64,000 nt of DNA, from positions 9,992 to 73,991 of the forward strand of contig JAYWHR010000065.1 in the NCBI GenBank assembly GCA_043777675.1. Direction: 5' to 3'. The notes beneath the pieces are model-generated. The model was given only the letters and a program-made list of their open reading frames with translations. It was not told the origin of the DNA and did not search any database. Source of the DNA: Comamonadaceae bacterium. Its GTDB lineage: Bacteria > Pseudomonadota > Gammaproteobacteria > Burkholderiales > Burkholderiaceae_C. Positions 28,801 through 60,320 of the stretch are shown piece after piece (positions within the stretch are counted from its first letter, which is position 1; each line of letters starts with the position of its first letter). The translations under genes were made by a program, and so were the position numbers.

Positions 28801-28970
28801 CGGACGCAGAAGACGCAAAGGTTACGCAGAAGTAATACCAAAAAGAAAAAGAAAAAGAAAAAGAAAAAAAAGAAATTAAGTTAAAGCCGAAGTTTCTCGT
28901 GCAAAAGCACGACTTTTTTGTATTTCTCTTTTTTACGTCTTCTGCGAAACCTTTGCGTCTGCTGCGTCCG
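28801..28970. repeat. Long palindromic element, copy A
   Basis: Arm CGGACGCAGAAGACGCAAAGGTTACGCAGAAG at 28801 and its inverted copy ending at 28970; A-rich left and T-rich right interior; inner TCGTGC/GCACGA hairpin. Confidence 0.9.
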
Positions 28971-28988
28971 GCTGTTTGTATTTAGAAT

Positions 28989-29897
28989 TTAAGGCTTGAT
29001 CGACTTAGCAGCCGTTTTGCGGATCGCTTCATTGATCTCCGCAATGGAGCGCTCAATAGCGGCATCGTCCAAATCATCAACGAAATTGTCTAGGCCGCCC
29101 GCTTGAATAGTTGATGCGAACACGCCATCGCTGATGCTGTCGGTTGAAATGCCTTGCGTGGATTCAAAGGCATCCGGCGTTTCCCACTCCATGGCGATCA
29201 CGGTGACGTTATCGGAATGCTCACCACCCTGGCGCAAGCCCAGCTCGACCACATCGGGCACCACACTGGCCACCGGGGCTTTGCACATGGTGTGAACAAT
29301 ATCGTTATCGTTCACACTACCCCAAAGGCCATCGGAGCAGAGCATGATGCGATCACCTTGCTGGAGCATGTGCGGGCCGGAAATATCAAAAACAGGCTTC
29401 GTCGGCGAGCCAAGGCAAGTAAAAAGCACATTGCGATTCAAGCGATCAAGCTTGATGATGCCCGCTGCATGCTGCTCAACATAAGAATGATCTCGCGTGC
29501 GCGTGACGAGCTCACCATCGCGCATGTAATACAAGCGAGAATCGCCGCAATGCACCCAAGTGGCCGAGCCACCCTGAATCAGCGCAGCCACGAGCGTAGT
29601 GCGCGGCGTATCGAGCATGCCTTTTTCGCTGGCGTATCGAATGATCTGGTGATGCGCAGCCATTAATGCTGAGGTTAGAAATTCAGAGACATTATGAATT
29701 TGAGGGCGTGCTTCTTTTTGAAAGAGCGCGGAGATGGTTTGAAGCGCCAATTGCGCAGCAACTTCGCCTTCTGGATGCCCGCCCATGCCATCAGCGAGCG
29801 CAAACATCGCAGATTCCCGCGTGTAGCTGTAGCCCATACGGTCTTCGTTTTTCTCCCGCCCGCCCCTGCGGCTGACCTGAAATACAGAAAATTTCAT
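28989..29897 (-). CDS. PP2C-family Ser/Thr protein phosphatase
   Basis: NEDR, ADGMGGH, HCGDSRLY, TRDHS, CSDGLW, DNVT. Confidence 0.9.
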   Translation of the reverse strand: MKFSVFQVSRRGGREKNEDRMGYSYTRESAMFALADGMGGHPEGEVAAQLALQTISALFQKEARPQIHNVSEFLTSALMAAHHQIIRYASEKGMLDTPRTTLVAALIQGGSATWVHCGDSRLYYMRDGELVTRTRDHSYVEQHAAGIIKLDRLNRNVLFTCLGSPTKPVFDISGPHMLQQGDRIMLCSDGLWGSVNDNDIVHTMCKAPVASVVPDVVELGLRQGGEHSDNVTVIAMEWETPDAFESTQGISTDSISDGVFASTIQAGGLDNFVDDLDDAAIERSIAEINEAIRKTAAKSIKP

Positions 29898-29911
29898 CGC
29901 CTCGCTCGATT

Positions 29912-30916
29912 TCATTTAACTTTACCAAATCCGGTGGCTCTGCCAACGGCTTTCTTCGTATCGCTGATCACATTATCAAACTGAAGGCGCATTTTCTCGC
30001 CAACAGACAAGCGCGTATAACGCCGCTCGCTTTCCTGAGAAAGCTCTTTTTGCAGCGCAAACACCGATTGCGGGCGAGACAGTGGATCAAGAGACATGCA
30101 CCATTCCACCACTTCAATCAAATTGTCTGAATACACGCCGCGCAGACGGGAGAGCGAAAGCGACAAACGGTCTTTTTCCAAACGCTGCGGTGCATCGTTG
30201 GGCGGATAGCCTTGCATGCTGGCATAAATACAAGCGCCAATCGCGTAAATATCCGTCCACGGGCCCATGCTCGCGTCTCGGCGATACATCTCAGGCGCAG
30301 CAAACCCAGGGGTGTACATTGGGCGAATGAAATTGCCTTCTTTGGAGAGCACCTCGCGCGCCGCGCCGAAATCAATCATCACGGCTTTGTTGTCATCGGT
30401 GATGAAAATATTCGCTGGCTTGATATCTAGATGCAGCATCTTGTGCTGATGCACGATGCGCAAACCGCGCAAAATTTCATCGTACAAGCTGCGGATGGTG
30501 GATTCCCGGAAGACTTTTTGCTTCTTTAATTCACGCGCGGTGATGATGAAATCTTGCAGCGTAGCACCTTCGAGATAATTCATCACCATGTAAACCGTCT
30601 CGTTTTCGCGGAAGAAATTCAACACGGAAACGACAGAAGGATGCGAGATTTGAGCCAGCGAGCGACCTTCTTCAAAGAAACTCTTGAGGCCCAAGCGATA
30701 CAAAGACAATTTATCCGGCTGCACCTGCGGCAGCAGCTCGCCCGGCGCACGCGTGGCTAAGCTAGCGGGCAAGTATTCTTTGATAGCAACCTGCTGGCCT
30801 TCACTATCTACAGAGAGATACACCACGCCAAAGCCCCCAGCAGAAACTTTGCGAACGACACGATAGCCACCAATAACGGTATCGGGCGGCAGGGAAGCGG
30901 GTTTAACTTTAGACAT
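29912..30916 (-). CDS. Hanks-type Ser/Thr protein kinase
   Basis: GGFGVVY, VAIKE, HLDIKPANI, DFG, YTPGFAAPE, DIYAIG. Confidence 0.92.
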   Translation of the reverse strand: MSKVKPASLPPDTVIGGYRVVRKVSAGGFGVVYLSVDSEGQQVAIKEYLPASLATRAPGELLPQVQPDKLSLYRLGLKSFFEEGRSLAQISHPSVVSVLNFFRENETVYMVMNYLEGATLQDFIITARELKKQKVFRESTIRSLYDEILRGLRIVHQHKMLHLDIKPANIFITDDNKAVMIDFGAAREVLSKEGNFIRPMYTPGFAAPEMYRRDASMGPWTDIYAIGACIYASMQGYPPNDAPQRLEKDRLSLSLSRLRGVYSDNLIEVVEWCMSLDPLSRPQSVFALQKELSQESERRYTRLSVGEKMRLQFDNVISDTKKAVGRATGFGKVK

Positions 30917-30925
30917 AATGCTTGC

Positions 30926-31930
30926 ATGTCAGTTTACAGCATGACGGGCTACGCCAGCCTGCAAACCACCCCCCCCACCCCTTCTGGCGCGCAATCCGAA
31001 AGCCCTGCTTCACCCCGCCTCGGCTTAGAGCTGCGCTCGGTCAACAGTCGCTTTCTCGATCTCAGCTTCAAGCTAGGCGATGAGCTGAGAGCACAAGAAA
31101 GCGCCCTGCGCGAGCTGCTCACAGCTCATTTGAAACGCGGCAAAGTCGAGCTGCGCGCCTATTTATCTCATGAGAAGGCGCATGAAGCCGACGCCGCGAT
31201 GCCCAGCGCGCCGCCAGCCGCCCTACTCCAGCAGCTCTCCCATGCGCAGGATCAAATCCAAGCTTGGCTGCCGCAGGCGCGGGCTTTGTCTGTGGCGGAT
31301 GTGCTGCGCCTGAGCACCAGCCCTGGCCAAGCATCGCAAGCTGTGACAGGCGATCTGAGCGGAGCGCTTCTGGCGCTGGCCAAAGAAGCCCTCACGCAAT
31401 TCATGGCATCGCGTGAGCGAGAAGGTGCGCGCTTGGCCGCCATGCTTGCCGGGCACACAATCCAGCTGCGCCAGCTGGTGAAAATCGCCCAGCCGTTAGT
31501 GCCCACACTCGTGGCGGCGCAACAACAACGCTTCATCGAGCGCTTCACCGAAGCCTTGAAGCAAGCCGATAACACTGGCCAGCTCTCCGCCACCGCCGCC
31601 CAAGAGCGCGCCCTCACCGAAGCTGCCGCTTTTGCCATCCGCATTGATGTGGCCGAAGAGCTCACGCGCCTGAACGCACACCTGGATGAAATTGACGGCC
31701 TACTCGCTGGCAAATCCAGAGGCAGCGACAACTCAAAAGCTCAAGCCAAATCGAAAGTCAACGCACAACCCACCGAGCTGGGCAAACGCCTTGATTTCAT
31801 CATCCAAGAGCTGCACCGCGAAGCCAACACCTTAGGCAGCAAATCCTCCACACTCGAACTCTCGCGCATTAGCGTCGATATGAAGGTCCTGATCGAGCAA
31901 ATGCGTGAGCAAGTGCAGAATATCGAATAA
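30926..31930 (+). CDS. yicC: YicC/YloC family endoribonuclease
   Basis: SMTGYA, SVNSRFLD, DVAEEL.RL..H, GKRLDF..QE..REANT..SK, EQVQNIE. Confidence 0.9.
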   Translation: MSVYSMTGYASLQTTPPTPSGAQSESPASPRLGLELRSVNSRFLDLSFKLGDELRAQESALRELLTAHLKRGKVELRAYLSHEKAHEADAAMPSAPPAALLQQLSHAQDQIQAWLPQARALSVADVLRLSTSPGQASQAVTGDLSGALLALAKEALTQFMASREREGARLAAMLAGHTIQLRQLVKIAQPLVPTLVAAQQQRFIERFTEALKQADNTGQLSATAAQERALTEAAAFAIRIDVAEELTRLNAHLDEIDGLLAGKSRGSDNSKAQAKSKVNAQPTELGKRLDFIIQELHREANTLGSKSSTLELSRISVDMKVLIEQMREQVQNIE

Positions 31931-31972
31931 CTATCTTTTTGATAGCAGACTACGCATATTTTACGCCGGCTA
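31930..31972 (-). repeat. 43-bp repeat, copy 4 (abuts yicC stop)
   Basis: Reverse complement tagccggcgtaaaatatgcgtagtctgctatcaaaaagatagt. Confidence 0.78.
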
Positions 31973-32022
31973 TATGCCTTAAATGCTTTCAAAATCAGCT
32001 GAAACGTAGTTAAAATAAAGCT

Positions 32023-32643
32023 ATGGAATTTCCTGGAAATCTTTTTGTTGTTGCAGCTCCGAGTGGGGCCGGTAAATCGAGCCTTGTGAAAGCCCTGATG
32101 GAGCTGGATTCTCAGGTGCAACCTAGCATCTCGCACACCACGCGCTCAGCTCGCGGCCAAGAAAAGCATGGCCGAGAGTACTATTTTGTGAGCGATTCTG
32201 AATTTGAAACGCTTATCGCAGGTCAAGCCTTCTTTGAATGGGCGCATGTGCATGGCAAGCGCTATGGCACTTCGCGCATGGCCATAGAGAGCCGCCTCTC
32301 GCGCGGGGAAGATGTGATTCTTGAGATCGACTACCAAGGCGCGTATCAAATCAAAAAGCTTTTTCCAGAAGCTGTGCTGATCTTCATCTTGCCGCCCAGC
32401 CTTGAGGAGCTTCGTGGCCGCATTGAGCGGCGCGGTGAGGATACGACGGACAGCATCGAGCTGCGCATGCAAAACGCCCGCGATGAGATCATCCAAGCTC
32501 GCAATTTCGATTTCGTTATAATCAATGAGATATTTGAGCGGGCTTTGTTCGATCTGAAAGCTATCGTTTCTGCGCAACGGTTGAAGTTTGTAGCCCAGCG
32601 CCGAGCACGAGCCGCCACCTTCCTCGCACTGAATATTCATTGA
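32023..32643 (+). CDS. gmk: Guanylate kinase
   Basis: [30 protein letters not shown]. Confidence 0.96.
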
Positions 32644-32689
32644 GCTGCTTGTTCTCACATCATTTTTTTCGAATCACTGGAGTTATCCC

Positions 32690-32893
32690 ATGGCCCGTAT
32701 CACTGTTGAAGACTGCCTCAAACAGATCCCCAACCGCTTTGAGCTTGTGCTCTCGGCCACTTACCGTGCCCGCATGCTCAGCCAAGGCCACACGCCCAAG
32801 CTGGAGAGCAAAAACAAGCCTTGCGTCACCGCCTTGCGCGAGATCGCTGCTGGCAAAATCGGCACTGAAATGCTGAAAAAAGTGCCTATCTAA
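32690..32893 (+). CDS. rpoZ: RNA polymerase omega subunit
   Basis: [10 protein letters not shown]...NRFELVL.A..RAR, K....ALREIA.G. Confidence 0.96.
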
Positions 32894-32918
32894 GCCCGTC
32901 TACAACATCTACCTCTCG

Positions 32919-32945
32919 AAAAAGCGCCTTTTCAGGCGCTTTTTT
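32919..32945 (+). terminator. Intrinsic terminator-like hairpin after rpoZ
   Basis: AAAAAGCGCC-ttttca-GGCGCTTTTTT. Confidence 0.6.
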
Positions 32946-32983
32946 CATGGAATTTGCTTCTCTTGTTACCATGTGACTTATCT

Positions 32984-35308
32984 ATGAGTGCAGTGATGAA
33001 ACCCGTCCGTGCCAAGGCATCCGCCAAAAGCCCGAAATTAGCCGCAGATGCAGCCAATGCAGCGGCTGCTAGCTTTGCTGCGCTCATGGCCAAATTGGAT
33101 TACTTGGGGGCAGACGATGTCGATAGCATTCGCCGCGCCTACCGCTTTGCCGACGAAGCGCATTTAGGCCAAATGCGCGGCAATGGCGAGCCTTACATTA
33201 CGCACCCGATTTCCGTAGCTTCCCTCTGCGCCGAGTGGAAACTCGATGCCCAAGCGCTCATGGCAGCACTCATGCATGACACGCTGGAAGACTGTGGCGT
33301 GAGCAAGAGCGAAATCATCGAAAAGTTTGGTTCGCCCGTCGCAGAACTGGTCGACGGCCTCACGAAACTCGACAAACTCGAATTCAACACACGAGAAGAA
33401 AACCAAGCCGAGAGCTTTCGAAAAATGCTGCTTGCGATGGCGCGCGATGTGCGCGTGATCTTGATCAAACTGGCAGATCGCAGCCACAACATGCGCACAA
33501 TGGACGACATGCCCCGCGCCAAGTGGCCGCGCATCGCCCGCGAAACGCTGGATATCTACGCGCCGATCGCTCACCGCTTGGGTCTGAACACCACCTATCG
33601 CGAGCTGCAAGATCTCAGTTTTCGGCATTTGCACCCTTGGCGCTACGCCACGCTCACCCGTGCCGTGCAAAAAGCACGCGGCCGCCGCCGCGATCTGATT
33701 CAAAAAGTGCAGCGTGATATCGAAGCCAGCTTTGTCAATGCCAAGCTCCCTGTCACCATCTCAGGCCGCGAGAAAACCTTATTTTCCATCTACAACAAGA
33801 TGGACGGCAAGCACCTGAGCTTTGCAGAAGTTACCGATATCTATGGCTTTCGCCTAATCGTACCGAGCATCACCGATTGCTATACAGCGCTGGGCGTGCT
33901 GCATCAGCTCTACAAGCCCGTGCCTGGCAAGTTCAAAGATCACATCGCCATCCCGAAAATTAACGGCTACCAATCACTGCACACCACGGTGGTCGGCCCC
34001 AGCGGCGTGAATGTGGAATTTCAAATGCGCACGGAGCCGATGCATGTGGTGGCTGAGAGCGGTGTGGCTGCCCATTGGCTCTATAAGTCTGCCGGGGAGC
34101 AACAAGCGCTTGATGGCGTTGAAGATCCGCCGTCTTCTGCCGCCAGTGCCTCAGCCGATGCTGAGCGCTTAGGCACGCAATGGCTGCAATCCCTGCTCGA
34201 TATTCACAGCGAAAACCGCGAATCAGGCGATTTCTGGGAGCATGTGAAGATTGATCTCTTCCCCGATGCGGTGTATGTGTTCACGCCCAAAAGCAAAATC
34301 ATGGCCATGCCGCGTGGTGCAACGCTTGTGGATTTCGCCTATGCCGTCCACACCGATGTGGGCGACCATACCGTTGGTGCAAAAGTCAATGGCGAACAAG
34401 TGCCGCTGCGCACCGAGCTAAAAAATGGTGATGTGATTGAAATCATCACAGCAGAATTTTCCAAGCCCAACCCGGCTTGGCTAGGCTTTGTGCGAACCGC
34501 GCGAGCGCGCAGCAAAATTCGCCACTATCTGAAGACCCTGTCGCAAAATGAATCGCAAGATTTGGGAGAGAAATTGCTGCTACAAGCGTTGCGCAGCGAA
34601 GGCATTGAGGCACTCCCCGCTTACAAAGAGTCAAACCAAGATGATGCTCCGGTGAACGCGCTGTGGGATAAGCTGCTGCGCTTCTCAGGTAACAAAACCC
34701 GCGAAGAAATGCTCATCGATATCGGGCTGGGCAAGCGGGTGGCCACGATCGTTGCCAAGCGCTTGGTCAGTTTGTTGGCTGAGACCGGTAAAAAACCTGA
34801 TGCGCTGCTCATGAGCAAGGAGCGATTCACGGCGCATGAGCAAATCTCCCAAGGCGCGATTGTGCTTGATGGACGCGATGGCGGCACGGTGCAATACGCG
34901 CCATGCTGCCAACCGATTCCGGGCGACGCGATCACTGGCTACCTCGGGCGGGGCGAAGGTTTGCAGGTTCACACGGATGCATGCGGTGTGGCTAAGAAAC
35001 TCATGCAAAAAGATAAAGAACGCTTCATTGCCGTGGAATGGAGCGACGAACCGCTGCGCCCGTTTGCCACCACTGTCGTCGTCACCGTGCAAAGCGGTAA
35101 AGGCGTGTTGGCCAAGGTTGCGGCGGCTATGGCTTCGGCCGAAGCTGACATTAAAAGCGTGGATTTGGGACGCGACAGCGAGGTGGGCGCACCCACGGCC
35201 GATCTGCGATTTGTGATTGATGTACGGGATACGGCGCATTTGGATGCCGTGCTGCGTACCCTTGCCCGCACAGCCAACGTTCATAAAGCGCTACGGGTTT
35301 CGAGCTGA
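32984..35308 (+). CDS. spoT: Bifunctional (p)ppGpp synthetase/hydrolase
   Basis: HD hydrolase motif MHD..ED, GREK, PK.NGYQSLHT, TGS and ACT domains; gmk-rpoZ-spoT order. Confidence 0.92.
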   Translation: MSAVMKPVRAKASAKSPKLAADAANAAAASFAALMAKLDYLGADDVDSIRRAYRFADEAHLGQMRGNGEPYITHPISVASLCAEWKLDAQALMAALMHDTLEDCGVSKSEIIEKFGSPVAELVDGLTKLDKLEFNTREENQAESFRKMLLAMARDVRVILIKLADRSHNMRTMDDMPRAKWPRIARETLDIYAPIAHRLGLNTTYRELQDLSFRHLHPWRYATLTRAVQKARGRRRDLIQKVQRDIEASFVNAKLPVTISGREKTLFSIYNKMDGKHLSFAEVTDIYGFRLIVPSITDCYTALGVLHQLYKPVPGKFKDHIAIPKINGYQSLHTTVVGPSGVNVEFQMRTEPMHVVAESGVAAHWLYKSAGEQQALDGVEDPPSSAASASADAERLGTQWLQSLLDIHSENRESGDFWEHVKIDLFPDAVYVFTPKSKIMAMPRGATLVDFAYAVHTDVGDHTVGAKVNGEQVPLRTELKNGDVIEIITAEFSKPNPAWLGFVRTARARSKIRHYLKTLSQNESQDLGEKLLLQALRSEGIEALPAYKESNQDDAPVNALWDKLLRFSGNKTREEMLIDIGLGKRVATIVAKRLVSLLAETGKKPDALLMSKERFTAHEQISQGAIVLDGRDGGTVQYAPCCQPIPGDAITGYLGRGEGLQVHTDACGVAKKLMQKDKERFIAVEWSDEPLRPFATTVVVTVQSGKGVLAKVAAAMASAEADIKSVDLGRDSEVGAPTADLRFVIDVRDTAHLDAVLRTLARTANVHKALRVSS

Positions 35309-35387
35309 AGACCTCATTTGCTCACTGATTAGCGCTGCAATCTGTGGCCTAATAGTGGGTTGTATCAATTTTTCTTGGAATTCAATC

Positions 35388-35555
35388 ATGGCCGACAAAA
35401 TCAGAACCGAAGCAGATCGCAAACGCAGCCCTAAGCCTGTATTGCCTAATGGCGTATCTATGCCTGTGAGCCGTGGCCAAAAGGTGAGCTTAGAGCGCGG
35501 CAGCTCCACTAGAAATAAGAAAAACGCGGGCAAGCGTCCGAAAAAAGGCGGTTAA
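35388..35555 (+). CDS. Small basic hypothetical protein (55 aa)
   Basis: ATG-started ORF filling the spoT-FDH gap; 16 of 55 residues are K/R; weak RBS. Confidence 0.4.
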   Translation: MADKIRTEADRKRSPKPVLPNGVSMPVSRGQKVSLERGSSTRNKKNAGKRPKKGG

Positions 35556-35636
35556 TCTCGGCGGGCTGCTGTAGCCTGACGCTGCGATTGATTCAAATGC
35601 GCAGTTTGAACATGCGTGACTCTTGCTTGCCAAGAC

Positions 35637-41052: not shown

Positions 41053-41054
41053 GA

Positions 41055-44755: not shown

Positions 44756-44784
44756 GAGTTTTAAGTCCTTGAAGACATGAACAC

Positions 44785-44930
44785 CGGACGCAGAAGACGC
44801 AGAGGTTACGCAGAAGAAATACCAAAGAGAAAAAAAGAAACGGTGTCTTCAAATCAAACCCATTCAATTTTAAATCCCGTCTTCTGTCTTTTTTGCGTCT
44901 TTTGCGTAACCTTCGCGTCTTCTGCGTCCG
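44785..44930. repeat. Long palindromic element, copy B (boxB-boxA gap)
   Basis: Same 32-bp inverted arms as copy A, different interior. Confidence 0.9.
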
Positions 44931-44959
44931 GTATTGAATTCGTACTATTTCCTATTGAA

Positions 44960-46384: not shown

Positions 46385-46485
46385 GAATTGCTCGATTTAA
46401 AAACAACGGTGGAGTTAGTTCGGTTACAGCAAGCCACCTGCCTTGCTGCACAACGAGATTTTTTAACTTCTAAATACATGAATAC

Positions 46486-46618
46486 CGGCCGCAGAAGACG
46501 CAAAGGTTACGCAGAAGGGATACCAAAAAATACCAAGACTGATGTTTCAAAAAAATCCTCTTTCTTGGATTTTCTTTTTTGTATTTTTTCTGCGTAACCT
46601 CTGCGTCTTCTGCGTCCG
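46486..46618. repeat. Long palindromic element, copy C (boxC-boxB gap)
   Basis: Same 32-bp inverted arms, shortest interior. Confidence 0.9.
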
Positions 46619-46637
46619 GCTGTTTGTATTCAAAACC

Positions 46638-48362: not shown

Positions 48363-48363
48363 G

Positions 48364-49296: not shown

Positions 49297-49383
49297 GGGG
49301 TGATTTCAGGATTTATAGTTCAACTGGAATTATTTTGCATCAGAACAGATAACCCGTCAAACCAAGGGCTTGAGGAGACAACC

Positions 49384-50979: not shown

Positions 50980-51212
50980 GCGTACATTGGTAGTACGCTG
51001 TGGCCTGAGATGACTGAAATCGGGCGCCCTCATGGTGGAGTACCACAAATCGGTCGCCCAATTTCAGTCATCTCAGACCGTCTTGTACAACGCGACCGGC
51101 TACGAGCGAAGACCTTTCGAGTAGCCAACAGGCCGCGAGTGTGAGGCTTTGCGACTGACCGATTTGTGGTACTCCACCATGAGGGCAGGCGCAAAGCCTC
51201 ACACTCGCAGCC
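50979..51212. repeat. Multi-hairpin intergenic element with 30-bp perfect inverted repeat
   Basis: Stems 50979-85/50993-99, 51005-20/51061-76, 51098-103/51121-26, 51135-53/51190-208. Sequence 51026-51055 is the exact reverse complement of 51157-51186. Confidence 0.8.
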
Positions 51213-51251
51213 GCTCTATCCACGCAGCCATCAACAGCCAGCCAACAACCT

Positions 51252-52364
51252 ATGCAAAACCTAGACAGCCTCCAAGGCATCAAAGTCATCGATCTATCGC
51301 GAGTACTCGGCGGCCCCTACTGCACGCAAATCTTGGCAGACCACGGCGCAGATGTTTTGAAAATCGAGCCACCTCAAGGGGACGAGACACGCGGCTGGGG
51401 CCCGCCATTTAATGCACATGGCACAGCCAGCTATTTCCTAGGTCTGAACCGCAACAAACGCGGCACGACCATGGATTTGTACGATCCCGCGCAGCGCGAA
51501 GCTTTGATGAAGTTGCTCGAAGATGCCGATGTGCTCGTGGAGAATTTCAAAACGGGCAGCATGGAAAAATGGGGTATTGGGTTTGACACACTGCATGCCA
51601 AATTCCCTCGCCTCATCCATTGCCGAGTGAGTGGTTTCGGCGCAGATGGGCCGATGGGCGGCTTGCCCGGCTATGACGCTGCGATTCAAGCTTTAGCTGG
51701 CCTGATGAGCATCAATGGCGAAAAGGGCGGCGAGCCGCTCCGTATGGGCATCCCCATCGTCGATATTGCCACCGGTATGAGCGCCGCCATGGGCATCTTG
51801 CTCGCGCTGCATGAGCGCGACAAAGGCGGAGGAAGCGGATTGGGTCAGTTCGTCGAATCCAGTCTCTACGACAACGGCTTAGCGCTGCTGCACCCTCATA
51901 GCGCCAACCATTTGCTCGATGGCCGCGTGCCCGGCCGCAGCGGCAATGCGCATCCCAATATCGTGCCCTACGACACCTTTGCCACAGGCACTGAGCCGAT
52001 CTTCCTCGCCGTGGGCAACGACCGGCAATTTGCCACCCTCGTGCAGACCATCGGTGCGCCCGATCTCGCCACCGATCCGCGCTTCGTCAACAACGGTCAG
52101 CGCAACCTCAACCGCGTCGCCCTCAAAGCCGCTTTAGAGGAAAAACTTGCCCTCTTCGCTGGCAAACCGCTGGCAGATCAACTCGTGCGCGCAGGCGTGC
52201 CCTGTGCCCCCATCCAAGACGTGAAAGCCGCGCTGAGCGACGAGCACACCTTGCACCGCGAGATGATCGTCAATATCGGTGAATATCAAGGCGTCGCCTC
52301 TCCCATCAAGCTCAGCCGCACGCCTGCGACCTACCGCTTACCACCGCCAGAGCGAAACAAATAG
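51252..52364 (+). CDS. Family III (CaiB/BaiF) CoA-transferase
   Basis: DLSRVLGGP, GADVLKIEPP.GD, LNRNKR, ENFK.G, PGYD..IQA. Confidence 0.9.
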   Translation: MQNLDSLQGIKVIDLSRVLGGPYCTQILADHGADVLKIEPPQGDETRGWGPPFNAHGTASYFLGLNRNKRGTTMDLYDPAQREALMKLLEDADVLVENFKTGSMEKWGIGFDTLHAKFPRLIHCRVSGFGADGPMGGLPGYDAAIQALAGLMSINGEKGGEPLRMGIPIVDIATGMSAAMGILLALHERDKGGGSGLGQFVESSLYDNGLALLHPHSANHLLDGRVPGRSGNAHPNIVPYDTFATGTEPIFLAVGNDRQFATLVQTIGAPDLATDPRFVNNGQRNLNRVALKAALEEKLALFAGKPLADQLVRAGVPCAPIQDVKAALSDEHTLHREMIVNIGEYQGVASPIKLSRTPATYRLPPPERNK

Positions 52365-52426
52365 CGCCGAACGCCGTCTCACCAAGCCCTGCGCGACAAT
52401 CTGCCATCGCAATTTAGGAAACCCCC

Positions 52427-53215
52427 ATGACCCTCTCGCTTAAAAACAAAACCGCCCTCATCACAGGCTCCACCAGTGGCATCGGCCTAGGCATTGCCAT
52501 TGAGCTTGCCAAGCAAGGCGCGAATATTGTGCTCAACGGTTTCGGAGACGCGGCAGCCATTGAAGCCGCTCGCTCGCAGGTAGCCGCGCAAGGCGTACGC
52601 GTGGCCTACCACGGGGCAGATATGAGCAAGCCCGCTGAGATCGAGCAGCTCATCGCATTTGCCGCCCGAGAATTCGGCATGGTCGATATCTTGGTGAACA
52701 ACGCAGGCATTCAGCATGTGAGCCCGGTGGAGAATTTCCCTGTTGAAAAGTGGGATGCTATTCTGGCCATCAATTTATCCAGCGCCTTCCACACCACACG
52801 CTTGGCCATGCCCGGGATGCGCGCCAAAAATTGGGGCCGCATCATCAACATCGCCTCAGCGCATGGCTTGGTGGCCTCCCAAGACAAATCCGCCTACGTC
52901 GCTGCCAAACATGGCCTCGTGGGTTTTACCAAATCCATCGCACTAGAAACAGCCACCACCGGCATCACAATCAACGCCATCTGCCCAGGCTGGGTGCTCA
53001 CGCCCTTGGTGCAAAAGCAAATCGACAATCGCGCTGAGCGTGAAGGCATCAGCGTGGATCAGGCCAGCAAAGATCTGCTGGGCGAGAAGCAGCCCTCGCT
53101 CCAATTCACCACACCCCAGCAGCTCGGCGAACTTGCCGTCTTCCTCTGCCAAGAGGCAGCAGCTAACGTGCGTGGTCAGGCTTGGGCAGTGGATGGCGGG
53201 TGGACAGCGCAGTGA
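52427..53215 (+). CDS. bdhA: D-3-hydroxybutyrate dehydrogenase
   Basis: TGSTSGIG, NNAGIQHV, SAHGLVAS..KSAYVAAKHG, WVLTPLVQKQI. Confidence 0.9.
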   Translation: MTLSLKNKTALITGSTSGIGLGIAIELAKQGANIVLNGFGDAAAIEAARSQVAAQGVRVAYHGADMSKPAEIEQLIAFAAREFGMVDILVNNAGIQHVSPVENFPVEKWDAILAINLSSAFHTTRLAMPGMRAKNWGRIINIASAHGLVASQDKSAYVAAKHGLVGFTKSIALETATTGITINAICPGWVLTPLVQKQIDNRAEREGISVDQASKDLLGEKQPSLQFTTPQQLGELAVFLCQEAAANVRGQAWAVDGGWTAQ

Positions 53216-53230
53216 TCTGCATTCCTGTGC

Positions 53231-53273
53231 ACTACTAAATCAATAGCGCTCCACGCTGTATTTATTCCGGCTA
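53231..53273 (-). repeat. 43-bp repeat, copy 8 (intergenic, after bdhA)
   Basis: Reverse complement tagccggaataaatacagcgtggagcgctattgatttagtagt. Confidence 0.8.
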
Positions 53274-53341
53274 TGCAGCCAAAAAGCCTTAAAAATCCAC
53301 TAAAAAATCTGCTCAGCGGCGCAAATCAGCGCCACTGAACT

Positions 53342-54430
53342 TCAAGTATCTTTGCTAATCTTGATAGAAGGAAACTTCGATGAAAAATCTTTGGCTTTCG
53401 CAGCAATCTTGATCGCCACTTGTCGCGCGACAGCTTTGTAGATTGTGGCAATCTCCCCATCTGGATCGGTCACCATCGTGGGGCGGCCGCTGTCTGCATT
53501 GACGCGGATGCTCATATTAAGTGGCAACGCGCCGAGGTAATCGATGCCCTTTTCCGCCGCATAGCGTTTGCCGCCATCTTCGCCAAAGATATGCTCGGTG
53601 TGGCCGCATTTTTCGCAGACGTGGACTGCCATGTTCTCCACCACGCCCAGAATCGGCACACCCACTTTTTCGAACATTGCCACGCCTTTTTTCGCATCCA
53701 GCAAGGCAATGTCTTGCGGTGTGGTGACGATCACAGCGCCTGTCATGGGCACGCGCTGGCTGAGCGTAAGTTGAATATCGCCGGTGCCAGGGGGCATATC
53801 GACGATGAGGTAATCCAAATCTTTCCAATTGGTTTGGCGAATCAGTTGCTCTAGCGCCTGAGTGGCCATGGGGCCGCGCCAGATCATGGCTTCGTCTTGG
53901 TTGACAAGGAAGCCTATGCTCATCACCTGCACGCCGTAGTTTTCCATGGGCTCCATGGTCTTGCCGTCTTCACTCTCTGGGCGGCCTTCAATGCCCATCA
54001 TCATGGGCTGGCTCGGGCCATAAATATCGGCATCCAAAATGCCCACGCGCGCGCCCTCGGCGGCCAGCGCGAGCGCGAGATTCACCGTGGTGGTGCTCTT
54101 GCCCACGCCGCCTTTGCCCGAAGCCACGGCTACGATGTTTTTTACCGTAGGCATGAGCGCCACACCGCGCTGAGCCGCATGCGCGACGATTTTGACTGTG
54201 ACATTGCAAGAGACGTTGTCCACGCCCGCCACGCTTTTGGCGGCTGCGATCAGCGCTTTGCGAAATGCCGGAATCTGGCTCTTGGCCGGGTAGCCCAGCT
54301 CCACATCAAAGGCCACATCGCCCTCGGTGACGGTGAGGTTTTTGATGCATTTGCTAGAGACAAAATCTTTACCGGTATTGGTGTCGATCACGCTTTTTAG
54401 CGCGTTGAGAATCTGTTCGTTGGTGGCCAT
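53342..54430 (-). CDS. apbC: Fe-S cluster carrier ApbC/Mrp
   Basis: SGKGGVGKST, DADIYGPS, WRGPM, DMPPGTGD, TTPQ, ENM..H.CEKCG. Confidence 0.95.
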   Translation of the reverse strand: MATNEQILNALKSVIDTNTGKDFVSSKCIKNLTVTEGDVAFDVELGYPAKSQIPAFRKALIAAAKSVAGVDNVSCNVTVKIVAHAAQRGVALMPTVKNIVAVASGKGGVGKSTTTVNLALALAAEGARVGILDADIYGPSQPMMMGIEGRPESEDGKTMEPMENYGVQVMSIGFLVNQDEAMIWRGPMATQALEQLIRQTNWKDLDYLIVDMPPGTGDIQLTLSQRVPMTGAVIVTTPQDIALLDAKKGVAMFEKVGVPILGVVENMAVHVCEKCGHTEHIFGEDGGKRYAAEKGIDYLGALPLNMSIRVNADSGRPTMVTDPDGEIATIYKAVARQVAIKIAAKAKDFSSKFPSIKISKDT

Positions 54431-54529
54431 AAGGTCTGCTAATTCGATGTTCGATGAAAGGGGGAATCGCTTGAGTGTACAGAAGCCCCATAAAATCAGG
54501 GATTCCCCCGATAAGAACTGCTCCTCGCC

Positions 54530-56605
54530 ATGTCAGCCAAACGCCAACTTTTCGTCACCACCGCCCTACCGTATGCCAACGGCAAATTCCACATCGGCCA
54601 CATCATGGAATATATTCAGGCTGATATTTGGGTGCGTTTCCAGCGGATGCAGGGGCATGACGTAAATTTTGTGTGTGCAGACGATGCACATGGCGCGCCG
54701 ATCATGATCGCAGCTGAAAAGGCTGGTAAAACACCGCGCCAGTTTGTGGACGACATTGCCGCTGGCCGCAAAGAATACTTAGATGGCTTTCACATCAGCT
54801 TCGACAACTGGAGCCACACCGACAGCGAAGAAAACCACGAACTGTGCCAAACCATTTATCAAGACCTAGACAAAATGGGCCTGATCGGCAAGAAAAGCGT
54901 AGAGCAGTTTTTCGATCCAGAGAAAAACATGTTTTTGCCAGACCGCTTCATCAAAGGCGAATGCCCCAAATGCGGCACCAAAGATCAGTATGGCGACAAC
55001 TGCGAAAACTGCGGCGCAGTGTATGCCCCCACCGATCTGAAAAATCCGTATTCCGCGCTCAGCGGCACCACGCCAATTCTCAAAAGCAGCGACCACTATT
55101 TCTTCAATTTGTCTGACTCTCGCTGCGTGGAATATCTAGAGAACTGGACGCAAGACGGCAAACTACAACCCGAAGTAGCCAACAAAGTCAAAGAATGGTT
55201 TTCAGTACGCACCAACCAAGACGGCAGTACGTCTGAGGGTTTAGCTGACTGGGACATCTCCCGCGACGCGCCCTATTTCGGCATCGAGATTCCCGGCGCG
55301 CCTGGTAAATATTTCTATGTGTGGTTTGACGCACCGATTGGTTATTTGGCATCGCTCAAAAATCTGCTCAATGAACGTGGTCAGGATTTTGATGCTTACA
55401 TCGCACCTAGTTCAGCAGTTGAGCAATACCACTTCATCGGCAAAGACATCGTTACGTTTCACACGCTCTTCTGGCCAGCAGTATTGAAGTTCAGCGGCCG
55501 CAAGACGCCGAATAACGTGTTTGTGCACGGCTTCCTCACCGTCAACAACGGTGAAAAAATGAGCAAGAGCCGTGGCACGGGTCTCGATCCTTTGAAATAC
55601 CTCGGCTTGAGTATGAACCCAGAATGGCTGCGCTATTACTTGGCCACCAAGCTGTCTGCACGCAATGAAGATATTGATTTCAACGCAGAAGATTTCATGC
55701 TGCGGGTGAATAGTGATTTGATTGGCAAGTATGTAAATATTGCGAGTCGTGCTGCTAAGTTTTTACCCAACGGCGCGCTGGCAGCATTTACGGATGATTC
55801 GCCGCACAAGTCGGGTGATCTACTCAAAAACGTTCGCGGCTTTTACGAAGAGCGTGAATATGGCAAAGCGCTGCGCGAGATCATGACGTTTGCTGACAGC
55901 GTGAATTCGCGATTCGATGGCGCTGCACCTTGGAAGCTCGTTAAAGAAGGCAAGGCAGAGCTTGCTGCAGAGAAAAGCTCGGAAGCCATTCAAATGTTTC
56001 GCATCATGAGCGCATGCTTGAAGCCGGTGATGCCTAGCGTTGTTGCGGCCGTTGAAAAATTTCTGCAATGTGAATCGCTCAGCTTTGAAAACGCAAGCCA
56101 GCCCTTGCCCATCGGCCACCGCGTGGGCAATTATGAGCACCTCATGCAACGCGTCACCTCAGAGCAACTTTCAAGCCTTTTTGAGCCTCCAGCCGGCATA
56201 GAATCTGCGCAAGTCGCTATTGAATCAGTAGCATCATCATTGCCCGGTGGCGAAGCGATTGCACAGAGCATCACGATTGACGACTTCGCCAAAATCGATC
56301 TGCGCATCGCCAAAATCGTTAACTGCGAAGCCGTGGAAGGCTCAACCAAGCTGCTGCGCTTGACGCTGGAAGTGGGCGAAGGCAAAACGCGGAACGTCTT
56401 CAGTGGCATCGCCAGCATGTACAAACCCGAGCAGCTCGTGGGCAAGCTGACGGTGATGGTGGCCAATCTCGCGCCGCGCAAGATGAAATTCGGCATCAGC
56501 GAAGGCATGGTGCTCGCAGGCAGCCATGCCGATGAAAAAGCCACGCCCGGTATTTACATCCTAGAGCCCTTCCCCGGCGCGCAACCAGGCATGCGCGTGC
56601 GTTAA
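54530..56605 (+). CDS. metG: Methionine-tRNA ligase
   Basis: ALPYANG..HIGH, Zn knuckle [25 protein letters not shown]-terminal tRNA-binding domain. Confidence 0.97.
56190..56232 (+). repeat. 43-bp repeat, copy 9 (in frame in metG)
   Basis: cagccggcatagaatctgcgcaagtcgctattgaatcagtagc; encodes [15 protein letters not shown]. Confidence 0.88.
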
Positions 56606-56662
56606 TCACGCCGCCCTCAAAAAGCTCCGCTGGTCACATTTCATCTTTACATTGAAGCAGCT

Positions 56663-56705
56663 ATTTTGTACAATATTGCATTCTGAATGCATTTTTGTAC
56701 AAAAT
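56663..56705. promoter_or_regulatory. Palindrome overlapping the ATPase start, candidate operator
   Basis: ATTTTGTACAA-tat-TGCATTC-t-GAATGCA-ttt-TTGTACAAAAT. Confidence 0.5.
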
Positions 56706-57951
56706 GACCGCCTCGCAATTTTCTCATCCAACAGCAGCTCTCCAAAGTAGCATCGCTCGCCAAGCAGCGCCCGCAATAGCGCGGTTGGCGCGTGGTTTTC
56801 GAGTGCTCGCGCTCACCGGCCCGCGACAATCAGGCAAAACGACTCTTGCGCAACTGGCCTTCCCCGCTAAACCTTATGTGAGCTTTGAAGACCTAGAGGT
56901 TCGCCGCCGCGCTGAGCTTGATCCACGCGGGTTTCTGGCGATGTTCCCAGATGGCGCTATTTTTGATGAAGTGCAGCGCAGCCCTGATATTTTTTCCTAC
57001 CTGCAAACGCATGTGGATGCACGCCAGCGCATGGGGGACTTCATTCTCACTGGTTCGCAGCAATTTGGCCTCACGGCGAGCATCACCCAATCGCTCGCAG
57101 GGCGCGTGGCTATGCTGGATTTGTTGCCACTCTCGCTGGCAGAAATTCATGCCCATCAAGGCATGGCATTGGGTCGCAAGCGCTTATGGGATTTCATTTG
57201 GCGCGGCTCTTATCCCGCGCTGCATCATAAAACACAGCATGGCGCACCTGCGCTGGAGCCAGCAGATTGGTATTCATCTTATGTCGCTACATATATACAA
57301 CGGGATGTGAGGCAGATTTCTGGCGTGCAGGATTTGGGAAGCTTTGAGCGTTTTGTGCTGCTGTGCGCAGGCCGCGTAGGGCAATTGCTCAATCTGGCCT
57401 CGCTCGCTTCCGATTGCGGCATCAGCTTCAACACAGCTAAGCATTGGATCAGCGTCATGGAGGCCAGCTACATCATTCGCTTGGTGCAGCCTTGGCATGA
57501 GAGCTTTGGAAAACGGCTGGTGAAAATGCCCAAGCTGTATTTTTTAGATATGGGCTTACTGTGCTACTTGCTGCGTATTCGTGATCCTCTGGCCTTGGCA
57601 CAGCATGCTCTGCGTGGGCTGATTTTTGAATCGTGGGTAATCAGCGAAACGCTCAAATGGCGTGCGAACCAAGGCTTGCGAAGCGATGTGTATTTCTGGC
57701 GTGATAACCATGGCACGGAGATCGATCTGGTGTTCCCGCATGATGACTTGCTCTATGCGGTGGAGATCAAATCAGGCGAGACCTTCAGCGCAGACTGGCG
57801 AGCGGGCTGCGACAAGTTTGTCAAATACGCGGGTTCGCGTGCGGGTGCGCCCATCATCGTCTATGGCGGCTTGGAGAATTTTGAATTTTTGGGTTACTCT
57901 GTGCGCTCTTGGCATAGCTTATCTGGTGCACCCTCCAACGTATCACCGTAG
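56704..57951 (+). CDS. AAA_14-type ATPase with C-terminal DUF4143 / nuclease-like domain
   Basis: GPRQSGKTT, IFDEVQ, LTGS, SLAGR, KMPKLYF.D.G, EIDL...AVEIKS. Confidence 0.87.
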   Translation: MTASQFSHPTAALQSSIARQAAPAIARLARGFRVLALTGPRQSGKTTLAQLAFPAKPYVSFEDLEVRRRAELDPRGFLAMFPDGAIFDEVQRSPDIFSYLQTHVDARQRMGDFILTGSQQFGLTASITQSLAGRVAMLDLLPLSLAEIHAHQGMALGRKRLWDFIWRGSYPALHHKTQHGAPALEPADWYSSYVATYIQRDVRQISGVQDLGSFERFVLLCAGRVGQLLNLASLASDCGISFNTAKHWISVMEASYIIRLVQPWHESFGKRLVKMPKLYFLDMGLLCYLLRIRDPLALAQHALRGLIFESWVISETLKWRANQGLRSDVYFWRDNHGTEIDLVFPHDDLLYAVEIKSGETFSADWRAGCDKFVKYAGSRAGAPIIVYGGLENFEFLGYSVRSWHSLSGAPSNVSP

Positions 57952-58001
57952 CGTGTATAGAAACTCTTCCCTGCACACTCTTGAAGAGATAATATCGCAT
58001 C

Positions 58002-58829
58002 ATGAACGCCCAAACAGATCGCGAAAGCCAGGCTCTCCAAAAGACCGATGCATCCGCCTACCGCAACTACACCGCCCCGCAAGTGAGCGAGGCGCAGCAG
58101 CGGGTGCGGGAGTTTTATCGGCTCAACCACACGCATCAAACGCACGATTTCGCGAAGGCAAAGAAAGCAGATTTTTTGAGCTTTACGCGCCAGAAGATGA
58201 ACCTGTGGGATGCGCTGGATTACCTCAACACTTTGGTAGACGATTCAGATCCTGACACCGCGCTGCCGCAAATTGATCATCTTGTGCAAACGGCCGAAGC
58301 CATGCGCAAAGATGGCCAACCCGATTGGATGATACTCACGGGCTTTATTCATGATTTGGGCAAAGTGCTCTGCCTGTTTGGTGAGCCACAATGGGCTGTG
58401 GTGGGCGATACATTTCCCACGGGCTGCGCGTATTCATCAAAAATTGTTTATAGTGAATTTTTCGCGCACAACCCTGATTTGCACAAGCCAGAATTACAAA
58501 CGAAGTACGGCATTTATGCGCCCCATTGCGGCCTGGATCAAGTCCACATGAGTTGGGGGCATGATGAATATCTGTATCACCTGCTGCGCCATCATCTGCC
58601 GATGGAAGCGCTCTACATGATTCGTTATCACAGCTTTTACAGTTGGCACGTAGTGGGCCATTACGATCACCTGTGCAACGCGCAAGACCGCGCGATGCTG
58701 CCTTGGGTGCAGCGCTTCAATCCATATGATTTGTATTCCAAAAATCCAAATCGCCCTGTGCTCAGCGATGTGAAGCCGTATTACGAAGATTTGATGGCGA
58801 AGTATTTGCCTGCTGATATTCAGTTCTGA
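58002..58829 (+). CDS. Myo-inositol oxygenase (MIOX) family HD-domain diiron protein
   Basis: VDDSDPD, H..QTAEA.R, IHDLGK, QWAVVGDTFP.GC, SWGHDEY, IRYHSFY.WH, FN.YDLYSK. Confidence 0.9.
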   Translation: MNAQTDRESQALQKTDASAYRNYTAPQVSEAQQRVREFYRLNHTHQTHDFAKAKKADFLSFTRQKMNLWDALDYLNTLVDDSDPDTALPQIDHLVQTAEAMRKDGQPDWMILTGFIHDLGKVLCLFGEPQWAVVGDTFPTGCAYSSKIVYSEFFAHNPDLHKPELQTKYGIYAPHCGLDQVHMSWGHDEYLYHLLRHHLPMEALYMIRYHSFYSWHVVGHYDHLCNAQDRAMLPWVQRFNPYDLYSKNPNRPVLSDVKPYYEDLMAKYLPADIQF

Positions 58830-58877
58830 AGCCTGCTTTGAGTTAGTCATTGGCACACAGCTTGCTCTGAACCCAGT

Positions 58878-60146
58878 ATGACTTTCCGCCCTCGCCTGCT
58901 CGACACCCTGGCCGGCTACAGCCGCGCAGCCCTCATCAAAGACATCGGCGCTGGCATCACCGTGGGCATTGTGGCGCTGCCGCTGGCTATTGCGATTGCC
59001 ATTGCCTCCGGGCTGCCGCCGCAAGCGGGCTTGTGGACAGCGATTGTGGGCGGGCTGCTTGTGTCGCTGTTGGGCGGCTCCAATGTGCAAATCGCGGGGC
59101 CCGCCAATGCATTCATCGTGGTGGTTTACAGCATCATTTTGCAACACGGCATCATGGGCTTGCTGCTGGCCACCATGATGGCGGGCGCGCTCATGGTGAT
59201 CATGGGTCTGCTGCAACTGGGGCGCTGGATGCGCCATGTGCCCGATGCTTTGATTGAAGGCTTCACCAGCGCCATTGCAGTAATCATCATCATCACGCAG
59301 CTCAAAGATGCGCTCGGCTTGCCGCTACCCAAGCCGCCAGCGGATGTGATTGGCTTGGTGGCTGCGGTGGCGGGCAAACTTGCGCAATTCAACCCGTGGT
59401 CGCTGGCTTTGGCTACTTCCTGCATTCTCATGCTCGTGCTCTGGCAGCAATTGAGCAAGCGCTTTGCGCTGCTCGCGCGCATTCCGGGACCGATGGTGGC
59501 GCTGCTTGGCCTCACTTTGCTGGCTTGGGGTTTGCAGCTGCCCGCCGAGACGATTGGCAGCCGCTTTGGCGCAGCCTTCAGCGAGATGGGTAGCCATTGG
59601 CCAAGCTTCATGTTGCCCAGCGTGCCTTGGAGCAGCCTGCCTGCGCTGATCGTGCCTGCGTTTACTTTAGCCGCGCTTGCTGCGATTGAATCCCTGCTTT
59701 GCGCGCGCATGGCCGATGAGCAAGCGCCAAACATGCAAAAGCATGCCCCCAATCAAGAGTTAATGGCGCAAGGCATCGCCAACATGGCCGCGCCGCTGCT
59801 TGGAGGCATGCCCGTCACAGGCACGATTGCCCGCACCATGACCAGTTTGCGCAGCGGCGGCTCCACGCCCATTGCAGGCATCGTGCATTCCCTCACGCTA
59901 TTGCTCATCGTGTTGATCGCTGCGCCCTTGGCCGCACACATTCCACTTGCGGTGCTCTCAGGCATCTTGCTCTTCATCGCATGGAACATGGGCGATTGGA
60001 AAGGCTTGCTCGCCTTACATCGCCAGGGCCGTGAATGGGCTTGGGTGGTGGGGGTGACTTTCGTTTTGACGCTCGCGCTCAGCTTGACTTGGGGAATTGC
60101 TGGCGGGTTGGCGGTTTCTTGGGCTTTTGGCAAGCGTAAGGCTTGA
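58878..60146 (+). CDS. SulP family anion transporter lacking the STAS domain
   Basis: AG.TVGIVALPLA.A.AIASG, ESLL.A..AD, NQEL..QG.AN, TG.IART; ends just after the last TM. Confidence 0.87.
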   Translation: MTFRPRLLDTLAGYSRAALIKDIGAGITVGIVALPLAIAIAIASGLPPQAGLWTAIVGGLLVSLLGGSNVQIAGPANAFIVVVYSIILQHGIMGLLLATMMAGALMVIMGLLQLGRWMRHVPDALIEGFTSAIAVIIIITQLKDALGLPLPKPPADVIGLVAAVAGKLAQFNPWSLALATSCILMLVLWQQLSKRFALLARIPGPMVALLGLTLLAWGLQLPAETIGSRFGAAFSEMGSHWPSFMLPSVPWSSLPALIVPAFTLAALAAIESLLCARMADEQAPNMQKHAPNQELMAQGIANMAAPLLGGMPVTGTIARTMTSLRSGGSTPIAGIVHSLTLLLIVLIAAPLAAHIPLAVLSGILLFIAWNMGDWKGLLALHRQGREWAWVVGVTFVLTLALSLTWGIAGGLAVSWAFGKRKA

Positions 60147-60158
60147 ATACCGAACTGC

Positions 60159-60320
60159 CGGACGCAGAAGACGCAAAGGTTACGCAGAAGGAATACCAAA
60201 AAGACAAAAAAGGGCGAAGAGAAGGCGAATACAGATCACTGAAGTTTCTGAATTCAATTTTTGCATTTTTTTTCTGTCTTTTTTGCGTCTTTTGCGTAAC
60301 CTTTGTGTCTTCTGCGTCCG
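60159..60320. repeat. Long palindromic element, copy D (between convergent SulP and lipoprotein genes)
   Basis: Same 32-bp inverted arms; right arm near-identical to that of copy B. Confidence 0.9.

Follow-up and report, generated by a model that had tools for sequence, protein, structure and literature searches.

Described repeat-enzyme pairs and the present locus

In REPIN-RAYT systems, doublets of repetitive extragenic palindromes (REPs) accompany a single-copy REP-associated tyrosine transposase (PMC3116915; 10.1101/2021.07.10.451892; 10.1101/2022.05.22.493013). In NTS-Ssn systems the repeats reach hundreds of copies, and the insertion-sequence-like architecture of repeat and gene was remarked by the authors who described it (PMC11893778). 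Here we analyse a comparable repeat family, starting from a stretch of 64,000 nucleotides (the window) of a Comamonadaceae bacterium, contig JAYWHR010000065.1 of assembly GCA_043777675.1 (G000:C65:9992-73991 in our labels; 3.66 Mb, 54% G+C, 82 contigs). The window holds four palindromic elements with conserved inverted arms. These are gene-less partners of one resident copy in which the same arms enclose a gene of the GxxExxY family, a predicted nuclease. Comparison with related bacteria points to a vertically inherited partnership, in which the GxxExxY nuclease probably recognises the units of the arms and maintains the repeats.

The likeness to REPIN-RAYT is extensive. In both, a single-copy gene lies between inverted repeats whose gene-less palindromic doublets are scattered in dozens to hundreds of copies. 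The gene stays at a fixed locus and is inherited vertically, repeat type varies with the gene from lineage to lineage, and the repeats are extragenic and show no target duplication. The enzymes differ, however, and so do the arms: here the gene encodes a predicted PD-(D/E)XK nuclease of ~120 residues instead of a Y1 HUH transposase, each arm strings together 9-11-nt units to a length of 32-43 nt, and the genome's own Y1 gene is unrelated to the arms. NTS/SRM-Ssn (PMC11893778, 2025) likewise combines a small single-domain nuclease gene, framed on both sides, with hairpin-forming repeats scattered in the same genome, and comprises many nuclease-repeat pairs, each with its own specificity. Its nucleases are GIY-YIG and not PD-(D/E)XK proteins, and the present repeats differ in being long unit arrays that form 100-200-bp foldbacks with unique interiors. 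Moreover, Ssn is a site-specific single-stranded DNA (ssDNA) nuclease, whereas the GxxExxY pairing proposed here comes solely from sequence comparison. Miniature inverted-repeat transposable elements (MITEs) and foldback elements also have short non-autonomous copies with the same terminal inverted repeats as a single longer copy that carries a gene, as well as arms of tandem short units and heterogeneous centres. In our case, by contrast, target duplication is lacking, the partner, a gene that encodes no known transposase, is single-copy and syntenic across genera, and the outermost ends are variable while the inner arm block is conserved.

We found no published description of a GxxExxY nuclease-repeat design in the literature searched. 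There, the name GxxExxY is mentioned only in passing (PMC8934634), and the only superfamily survey that we found gives the function of PDDEXK_3 as "Unknown" (PMC3424549). PF13366/GxxExxY is a very large family across bacteria, archaea and viruses, and this locus links one of its members to a defined DNA partner. The comparative evidence that nuclease and repeats would depend on each other gives the family a testable role.

Gene-less palindromes and the copy that carries a gene

An earlier note on this DNA had described four copies of a palindromic element, and all four are present as placed (positions of the whole stretch, outer limits first):

Element 1, 28795..28976: gene-less palindrome, arms 28801-28832 and 28939-28970, between a PP2C-like gene and rph
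Element 2, 44779..44936: gene-less, arms 44785-44816 and 44899-44930, occupying the boxB-boxA junction (minus strand), 29 nt past the boxB stop
Element 3, 46480..46624: gene-less, arms 46486-46517 and 46587-46618, occupying the boxC-boxB junction (minus strand), 19 nt past the boxC stop
Element 4, 60153..60326: gene-less, arms 60159-60190 and 60289-60320, between convergent genes

The 32-nt consensus CGGACGCAGAAGACGCAAAGGTTACGCAGAAG was matched by 8/8 window arms with 0-2 mismatches, compared to 0 matches in 100 shuffles, so that the near-identity claimed for the eight arms is real and not expected by chance. As the same note had seen, each interior is unique, A-rich and then T-rich, and extends the inverted-repeat pairing, which reaches 45-57 nt; it had also placed every copy 11-30 nt from a stop codon, and for elements 1 to 4 we measured 18, 29, 19 and 12/11 nt from arm edge to stop. 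The predicted RNA hairpins of the four elements are very stable (-72 to -82 kcal/mol, z -8 to -13), and Rfam covariance models gave no gathering-score match anywhere in the 64-kb window.

The family extends well beyond the window. A search of the whole assembly with up to 6 mismatches returned 175 arm matches, which form 78 paired elements, 77 of them of 98-199 bp and one of 485 bp. A further 19 arms seemed solo, and inspection revealed a second arm shortened by unit loss or bearing a variant unit, which brings the family to about 95 members. Some of them had looked like pairs around a cargo, such as C3:61830 and C3:67292 at a distance of 5.4 kb, yet each proved to be a separate element with a shortened or variant second arm. 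The copies are dispersed singly across more than 45 contigs, at operon junctions, and essentially one arm type is present.

The 485-bp element (G000:C35:10205-10689, outside the window) has these same arms and encloses the genome's sole GxxExxY/PDDEXK_3 gene: a PF13366 profile search of the assembly gave a single match (E 4e-38), C35:10267-10614, exactly inside it. We found no gene enclosed by any other copy in this genome. The window palindromes are therefore gene-less partners of one resident copy with the structure arm, GxxExxY gene, arm, and the suggestion that they could be cargo-less versions of a GxxExxY cassette is supported. An integron-like sense of the word cassette was not supported, the copies being scattered over contigs and not arranged in tandem arrays; no integrase search was made.

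The enclosed open reading frame (ORF; L076:1417-1866 on G000:C35, 149 codons) matches TIGR04256 with 135 bits (cut-off 35, E 1e-39) and PF13366 with 132 bits (cut-off 22, E 2e-38), and a Pfam and NCBIfam scan of this repeat-flanked ORF returned PDDEXK_3/GxxExxY alone, with no GIY-YIG domain. Among 25 homologues, the catalytic-type motifs GLLESAY, YRAD, VELK and AQLLSY vary little or not at all, and the set of E (GxxExxY), D, ExK and QxxxY is that of RecB/Cas4-type nucleases; PADLOC reported a weak Cas4 similarity over the motif stretch (E 1e-3). The AlphaFold model has an α-α-β-β-β-α-β order at low confidence (pLDDT 61). Foldseek against the PDB gave weak PD-(D/E)XK nuclease matches, none at E ≤ 0.001, and a PDB sequence search found no relevant solved relative. 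A partner with the same ends as the gene-less copies thus exists, and it encodes a predicted PD-(D/E)XK nuclease. The element occupies the gap between trpE and trpG, and the start codon of the gene shares bases with the trpE stop (ATGA). The left arm supplies the gene's first 25-30 codons, and this arm-encoded N-terminal tail, disordered in the predicted structure, is kept in homologues.

An anchored profile located the conserved block of the arm, which reads (A)ATAC, then CGG, ACGCAGAAG, ACGCAAAGGTT, ACGCAGAAG and ACGCAAAAAAG. Its units measure 9, 11, 9 and 11 nt (range 9-11), giving a phase of ~10 bp, and it runs from ~6 nt outside the arm through the fourth unit, ACGCAAAAAAG. Conservation of the arms is therefore confirmed, but not the 32-bp extent first given for it, the block being wider than 32 nt. 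Its five outermost bases are AATAC, ACAGC or ACTTC, the arm starts with (A)ATAC-CGGACGCAGAAG and no GTAG/CTAC REP head, and the flanks of the block, both outward and inward, are A/T-rich and differ from copy to copy. The polarity that had been claimed for the element did not hold: it reduces to whether an arm, left or right, has the fourth unit or lacks it (right only in 32 of the 78 pairs, both in 26, left only in 17, neither in 3), and the elements have no preferred orientation with respect to transcription (21 versus 16). A covariation analysis of the arms, proposed as a check, found no compensatory covariation (14 shared variants vs 10.3 expected, and 186 one-arm-only variants). Arms of one element are 29.6/32 identical and arms of different elements 29.5/32, in a star-like pattern. 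Conversion between the arms of an element was therefore rejected, and the copies look like independent copies of one master sequence.

Sixty-two of the 78 copies lie between same-strand genes, 9 between convergent and 7 between divergent ones. For genes that run towards an element, the arm edge is 9-38 nt past the stop codon in nearly all cases (mode 18-19), and in same-strand contexts the median distance from stop to arm is 21.5 nt and that from arm to next start at most 45 nt, so that the elements themselves are the intercistronic spacer. The window junctions with elements are PP2C-like/rph (both minus strand, PP2C-like stop 28989-28991, start of rph, encoding RNase PH, 28766-28768), boxC/boxB, boxB/boxA and one convergent pair, a sulfate-permease-family gene (stop 60144-60146) facing a BamE-like gene (stop 60332-60334). 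An apparent in-frame insertion at C28:21670 was an artefact of a spurious ORF, the element sitting in the paaA-paaB junction. The sequence logo around the neighbouring stop codons has just a mild T at -1 and a mild A at +1. Genes ending beside elements also have last codons poor in C at third positions (0.07-0.17 vs ~0.22) and more often stop with TAA (52% vs 36%), followed by A, a bias that may reflect expression level or a weak target preference.

Lying inside operons and with such strong predicted folding, the elements plausibly form long RNA hairpins when transcribed, as the earlier note had proposed. This placement invites an explanation at the RNA level, in which the repeats serve as mRNA hairpins (stabilisers, processing sites or attenuators) and GxxExxY acts on RNA or is incidental. 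The prevalence of same-strand junctions, the short distances to stop and next start, the stability of the predicted hairpins and the fact that the gene-carrying copy is itself an operon-junction insert all speak for it. We nevertheless regard it as quite improbable: arm sequence, and not mere pairing, is conserved, with no compensatory covariation and no orientation bias, arm type switches together with the nuclease gene (see below), and E...D...ExK plus QxxxY are motifs of metal-dependent DNA nucleases of the RecB/Cas4 kind. In a nuclease-repeat partnership, the copies would still be transcribed as intercistronic hairpins, as a by-product or a side function. For annotation, their presence means ~150-nt hairpins added inside operons such as box, paa and trp, and ORF calls extended by arms, as in the first 25-30 codons of the GxxExxY gene.

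Arm types, nuclease alleles and a natural motif mutant

We sampled 41 relatives; the genus comprises 15 genomes (labelled G000 to G014, G000 being the source of the window; these metagenome-assembled genomes are named Variovorax sp., Comamonadaceae bacterium or Ramlibacter sp. at NCBI). The core of the arm found in the window occurs in 14/14 genus members and in 0/26 other genera. PF13366 is single-copy in 11/15 genus genomes, always in the trpE-trpG gap, and the gene is present in this gap at 13/13 assembled genus loci, 11 complete and 2 cut by contig ends; the trpE-trpG locus of G002 and G012 was not recovered. In G004 and G011 (loci L131 and L130), an apparent absence of the gene turned out to be an assembly break: each contig stops 100 nt upstream of trpG, still including the last codons of the gene and its 3' arm. 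Both assemblies are otherwise 96-99% complete. With a repeat of 50-100 copies on either side of the gene, assembly stops at the arms, these two relatives lose the gene to contig ends, and profile-based "absence" of a GxxExxY gene in drafts is therefore unreliable. The order trpE-gene-trpG, the ATGA overlap and CCGGACGCAGA-type arms also occur in Variovorax paradoxus CP063166.1 and Ramlibacter sp. PS3R-8. V. paradoxus is cultured and genetically tractable, so the function of the pairing is directly testable there.

Within type A, the DNA identity of the gene-carrying cassette (79-86%) is that of its flanks, implying vertical descent, and recent lateral transfer of the type-A cassette was rejected for the same reason. 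By a four-locus DNA comparison the genus itself is nearly star-like (~76-85% identity).

The arms around the gene differ between species and fall into six types:

Type A, ACGCAGAAG-ACGCAAAGGTT…: gene arms in G000, G003, G008 and G010
Type A', …CGCGAAAG…: gene arms in G007
Type B: gene arms in G001
Type C, TAGGTAACGCGAAAA…: gene arms in G005, G006 and G013
Type D: gene arms in G014
Type E, GAACACGGAAG…: gene arms in G004 and G011

The dispersed arms follow the arms of the resident gene. Counted per strand (forward/reverse), type A arms number 83/87 in G000, 67/63 in G008, 43/41 in G003 and 27/24 in G010, with 1-10 elsewhere. Type C arms number 60/57 in G005, 49/54 in G013 and 30/28 in G006, followed by 9/17 in G010 and at most 6 elsewhere. 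Type E arms number 103/99 in G004 and 53/53 in G011, and are also found in G012 (29/42) and G006 (31/30), and type A' arms number 55/45 in G007, with a pattern that cross-hits type C arms. In V. paradoxus there are 59/60 arms, and all those listed show a variant of its own, AGAGGRCGCRAAGG; Ramlibacter PS3R-8 has 94/94, with its own AGAAGGCGCAGAAG-type variants. Altogether, the type of the gene arms is the leading dispersed type in 12/12 scorable genomes, jointly with type E in G006. This genome carries ~30 arms per strand each of types C and E and a single assembled GxxExxY gene, of type C; G010 also has minority type C and E arms, with more mismatches. The minority arm types of both may be relics of earlier gene alleles.

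The trp genes on either side group the genomes differently. TrpE/TrpG similarity pairs G010 with G007 (95%) and G001 with G013 (97% and 91%), whereas GxxExxY pairs G010 with G008 (96.8%) and G013 with G005 and G006 (88-89%), the G001 and G013 proteins being 62.6% identical. Sisters by TrpE thus have different arms (G010 type A vs G007 type A'; G001 type B vs G013 type C), and by these comparisons arm type follows the GxxExxY gene and not the flanking genes.

The gene is under strong purifying selection as judged from its substitutions: the ratio of nonsynonymous to synonymous change (dN/dS) is 0.02-0.05, at or below the trpG value, with synonymous sites saturated (pS, the synonymous difference, 0.55-0.8). 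Across the same species, the 32-nt arms of the gene copy differ by 0-3 bases. Same-site copies in G000 and G008 keep arms near consensus, with interiors drifted almost beyond alignment; the alignments indicate that the constrained part is the arms, not the interiors.

To follow the repeats regardless of type, we used a type-independent pattern of three phased units and counted arrays per strand in the 15 genus genomes and in controls. Fourteen genus genomes hold 41-94 arrays per strand and controls 0-12, while G009, whose assembly is 96% complete, holds 2/1. G009 is also alone in having changes at near-invariant motif positions of its GxxExxY protein, YRAD to YRAH and QLLSY to QLLSH. Its cassette has lost the 3' arm by deletion, and its junctions contain decayed arm remnants or another repeat family. 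In this single lineage, the pattern appears to tie the survival of the repeats to the nuclease. Taken with the type switches, the comparisons indicate that in related bacteria repeats and nuclease rise, change and vanish together.

These data also bear on a host function like that of Ssn. GxxExxY would then cut the arm in ssDNA (transforming DNA, or replication and repair intermediates) and modulate recombination, with repeats that mark the genome and spread without the nuclease, by ordinary recombination or another route. There is precedent in SsnA, a small GIY-YIG site-specific ssDNA nuclease whose gene is NTS-flanked and which modulates transformation (PMC11893778), and a single-copy, syntenic gene under purifying selection with species-specific arm types is what such a function would lead one to see. 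On its own, however, it leaves unexplained why ~95 copies match the resident gene arms after a type change between sister species and why repeats were lost alongside the G009 motif mutations, and we consider it unlikely, if the most serious of the competing accounts.

Instead, we favour a partnership in which the nuclease quite probably recognises the arm units, with several of its subunits sitting on an arm that is folded back or double-stranded. More tentatively, its activity might keep up the arm population, by spread into permissive operon junctions or by re-copying of arms between elements; the repeats may be sustained by spread, by conversion, or through a host function that acts on single-stranded DNA or on RNA. 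Such a partnership would work like REPIN-RAYT or NTS-Ssn on a different nuclease fold, and would be domesticated and vertical, rather than a hopping, horizontally spreading transposon. A bolder version, less likely than not but by no means remote, makes GxxExxY the enzyme partner of a third, independently evolved within-genome replicator beside RAYT/REPINs and Ssn/NTS: a minimal RecB/Cas4-like nuclease would read ~10-bp-phased units on folded-back arms, its cutting would drive arm copying into junctions or conversion, and repeats would live only while the nuclease is active and be rewritten upon allele replacement. If the nuclease is sequence- or structure-specific, the many natural pairs, which in one genus include A, A', B, C, D and E, would already form a collection of enzymes with matching sites, as proposed for Ssn.

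Occupied and empty junctions, and movement

The earlier note had proposed looking for empty sites in relatives, and clean ones were found in sister species:

Window site 1: empty in G008 (ATGA gene overlap); 11 species have an insert of type A, A', C, D-like or E, and G002 retains a 58-bp remnant
Window site 2 (boxB-boxA): no insert in G010, whose spacer is 8 nt; other species have arms of other types or a GC-rich repeat that is unrelated
Window site 3 (boxC-boxB): empty in G010, with the conserved 78-nt putative leader only; a same-type copy with diverged interior in G008
C37:726: filled in G000 (type A) and G005 (type C); no insert in G008 and G007 (TAATG overlap)
C37:16800: filled in G000 (type A) and G003 (type C); G010, G008 and G007 have an 11-nt ribosome-binding-site spacer and no insert
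C24:138069: filled in G000 and G008 (both type A) and in G005 (type C); reduced to a half remnant in G007; no insert in G010

Every filled site has its insert directly behind the stop codon, and the following gene retains its ribosome-binding site on the far side. Repeated insertion and replacement in place are both compatible with these data. Among 80 metagenomic box operons, junctions measure 0-533 nt and often contain unrelated GC-rich palindromes, and two operons (L167 and L170) have CCGGACGCGAAGG-type elements there. Since the same junctions are filled by different repeats, operon junctions seem to be permissive places for different repeat families.

That the same gaps are occupied across species, with conserved arms and drifting interiors, could also be expected from protein-independent concerted evolution, that is, old immobile palindromes whose arms are homogenised by ectopic recombination only, the gene merely lying inside one of them. 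We find this hardly credible, as it explains neither the clean empty sites in some species, nor the strong selection on the protein, nor the gene-following type switches between sister species, nor the near-total loss of arrays in G009.

We also looked for marks of transposon-type movement. No excess of target duplication was found at fixed offsets 0-15 with k = 3, 5 and 8 (one marginal cell, z 3.4, among 48 tests), nor around the stop codon with a flexible test (z 0.0), in line with what had been reported for the four window copies; an apparent duplication of the upstream gene end at window site 1 did not generalise. The same holds for the observation that there is no obvious transposase: the sole Y1 gene of the genome (IS200/RAYT-type, PF01797; C16:1051-1383, locus L150) is flanked by its own inverted repeat, GGGTCAGATACCATTTAATTT / AAATTAAATGGTATCTGACCCC, whose core has ~4 genomic copies. 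With ends unrelated to the arms, and no arms nearby, RAYT/IS200 was rejected as a mobiliser. Nor did we find a described MITE, REP or Rfam family, or a transposase, matching the elements, a match that the earlier note would have taken as refuting its proposal.

A MITE of the ordinary kind, mobilised in trans by some unrelated transposase and bearing the GxxExxY gene as a passive passenger in one copy, would account for the terminal inverted repeats (32-43-nt arms on elements of 98-199 bp, the 485-bp copy apart), the small size and the many copies, and the genome does have one IS200/RAYT-type Y1 gene. Against this stand the different inverted repeats and missing arms of that gene, the lack of target duplication and of any other copy enclosing a gene, the fixation of the gene copy at one locus across genera under purifying selection, the tracking of arm type with the GxxExxY gene, and G009 without repeats. 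Taken together, they make a passenger gene very unlikely.

Several points weigh against the partnership that we favour. Its support is comparative throughout, with cutting, binding and movement inferred. The 12 matches between gene-arm and dispersed type represent roughly 6-7 independent lineages, the genomes being related, several genomes have minority arm types lacking a matching gene, and in G006 type E equals type C in number. The G009 correlation is that of one lineage, and cause and effect could run in either direction. There is no target duplication at fixed offsets or at the stop codon, and the same gaps hold different arm types or unrelated GC-rich palindromes, so occupancy may reflect few permissive sites and slow turnover, not active targeting. 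A scan of one metagenome with BoxB for within-species polymorphism found no relative above 88% protein identity, and the comparison contained no near-identical strains in which to catch a fresh insertion. Finally, the predicted structure is weak (pLDDT 61) and its fold search gave no match at E ≤ 0.001.

Other repeats and a conserved stretch upstream of boxB were also seen. At 51002-51212 in the window, two adjacent GC-rich palindromes with 37-39-nt arms share an inverted 30-nt core, GCCCTCATGGTGGAGTACCACAAATCGGTC, with ~6 genomic copies (at most 5 mismatches); this is a second repeat family, unrelated to the arms. Similar "CCTCAT…GGTACC…AAATCGTCACCCGCCCC" elements occur in metagenomic boxB-boxA junctions (L171, L183 and L191). 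Upstream of boxB, at 46388-46465 on the minus strand, ~78 nt (AAAACAACGGTGGAG…CAGCAAGCCACCTGCCTTGCTGCACAACGAGATTTTTTAA) are conserved genus-wide, even where the palindrome is absent (G010). This stretch, for which Rfam has no match, contains a hairpin and may serve boxB as a leader or regulatory RNA. In the boxB-boxA junctions of G009 (L116) and G003 (L118), the place that element 2 has in G000 is taken by a GC-rich REP-like element, …GCAGCCGC(T/C)GCGGA(A/T)CTGGCT(T/C)TGCCAGGCCGC…GGCGCCCC(C)TTGAGGGG…, and related CGGCTTCGCCG…CCCCC…GGGGG elements are present in several metagenomic box operons.

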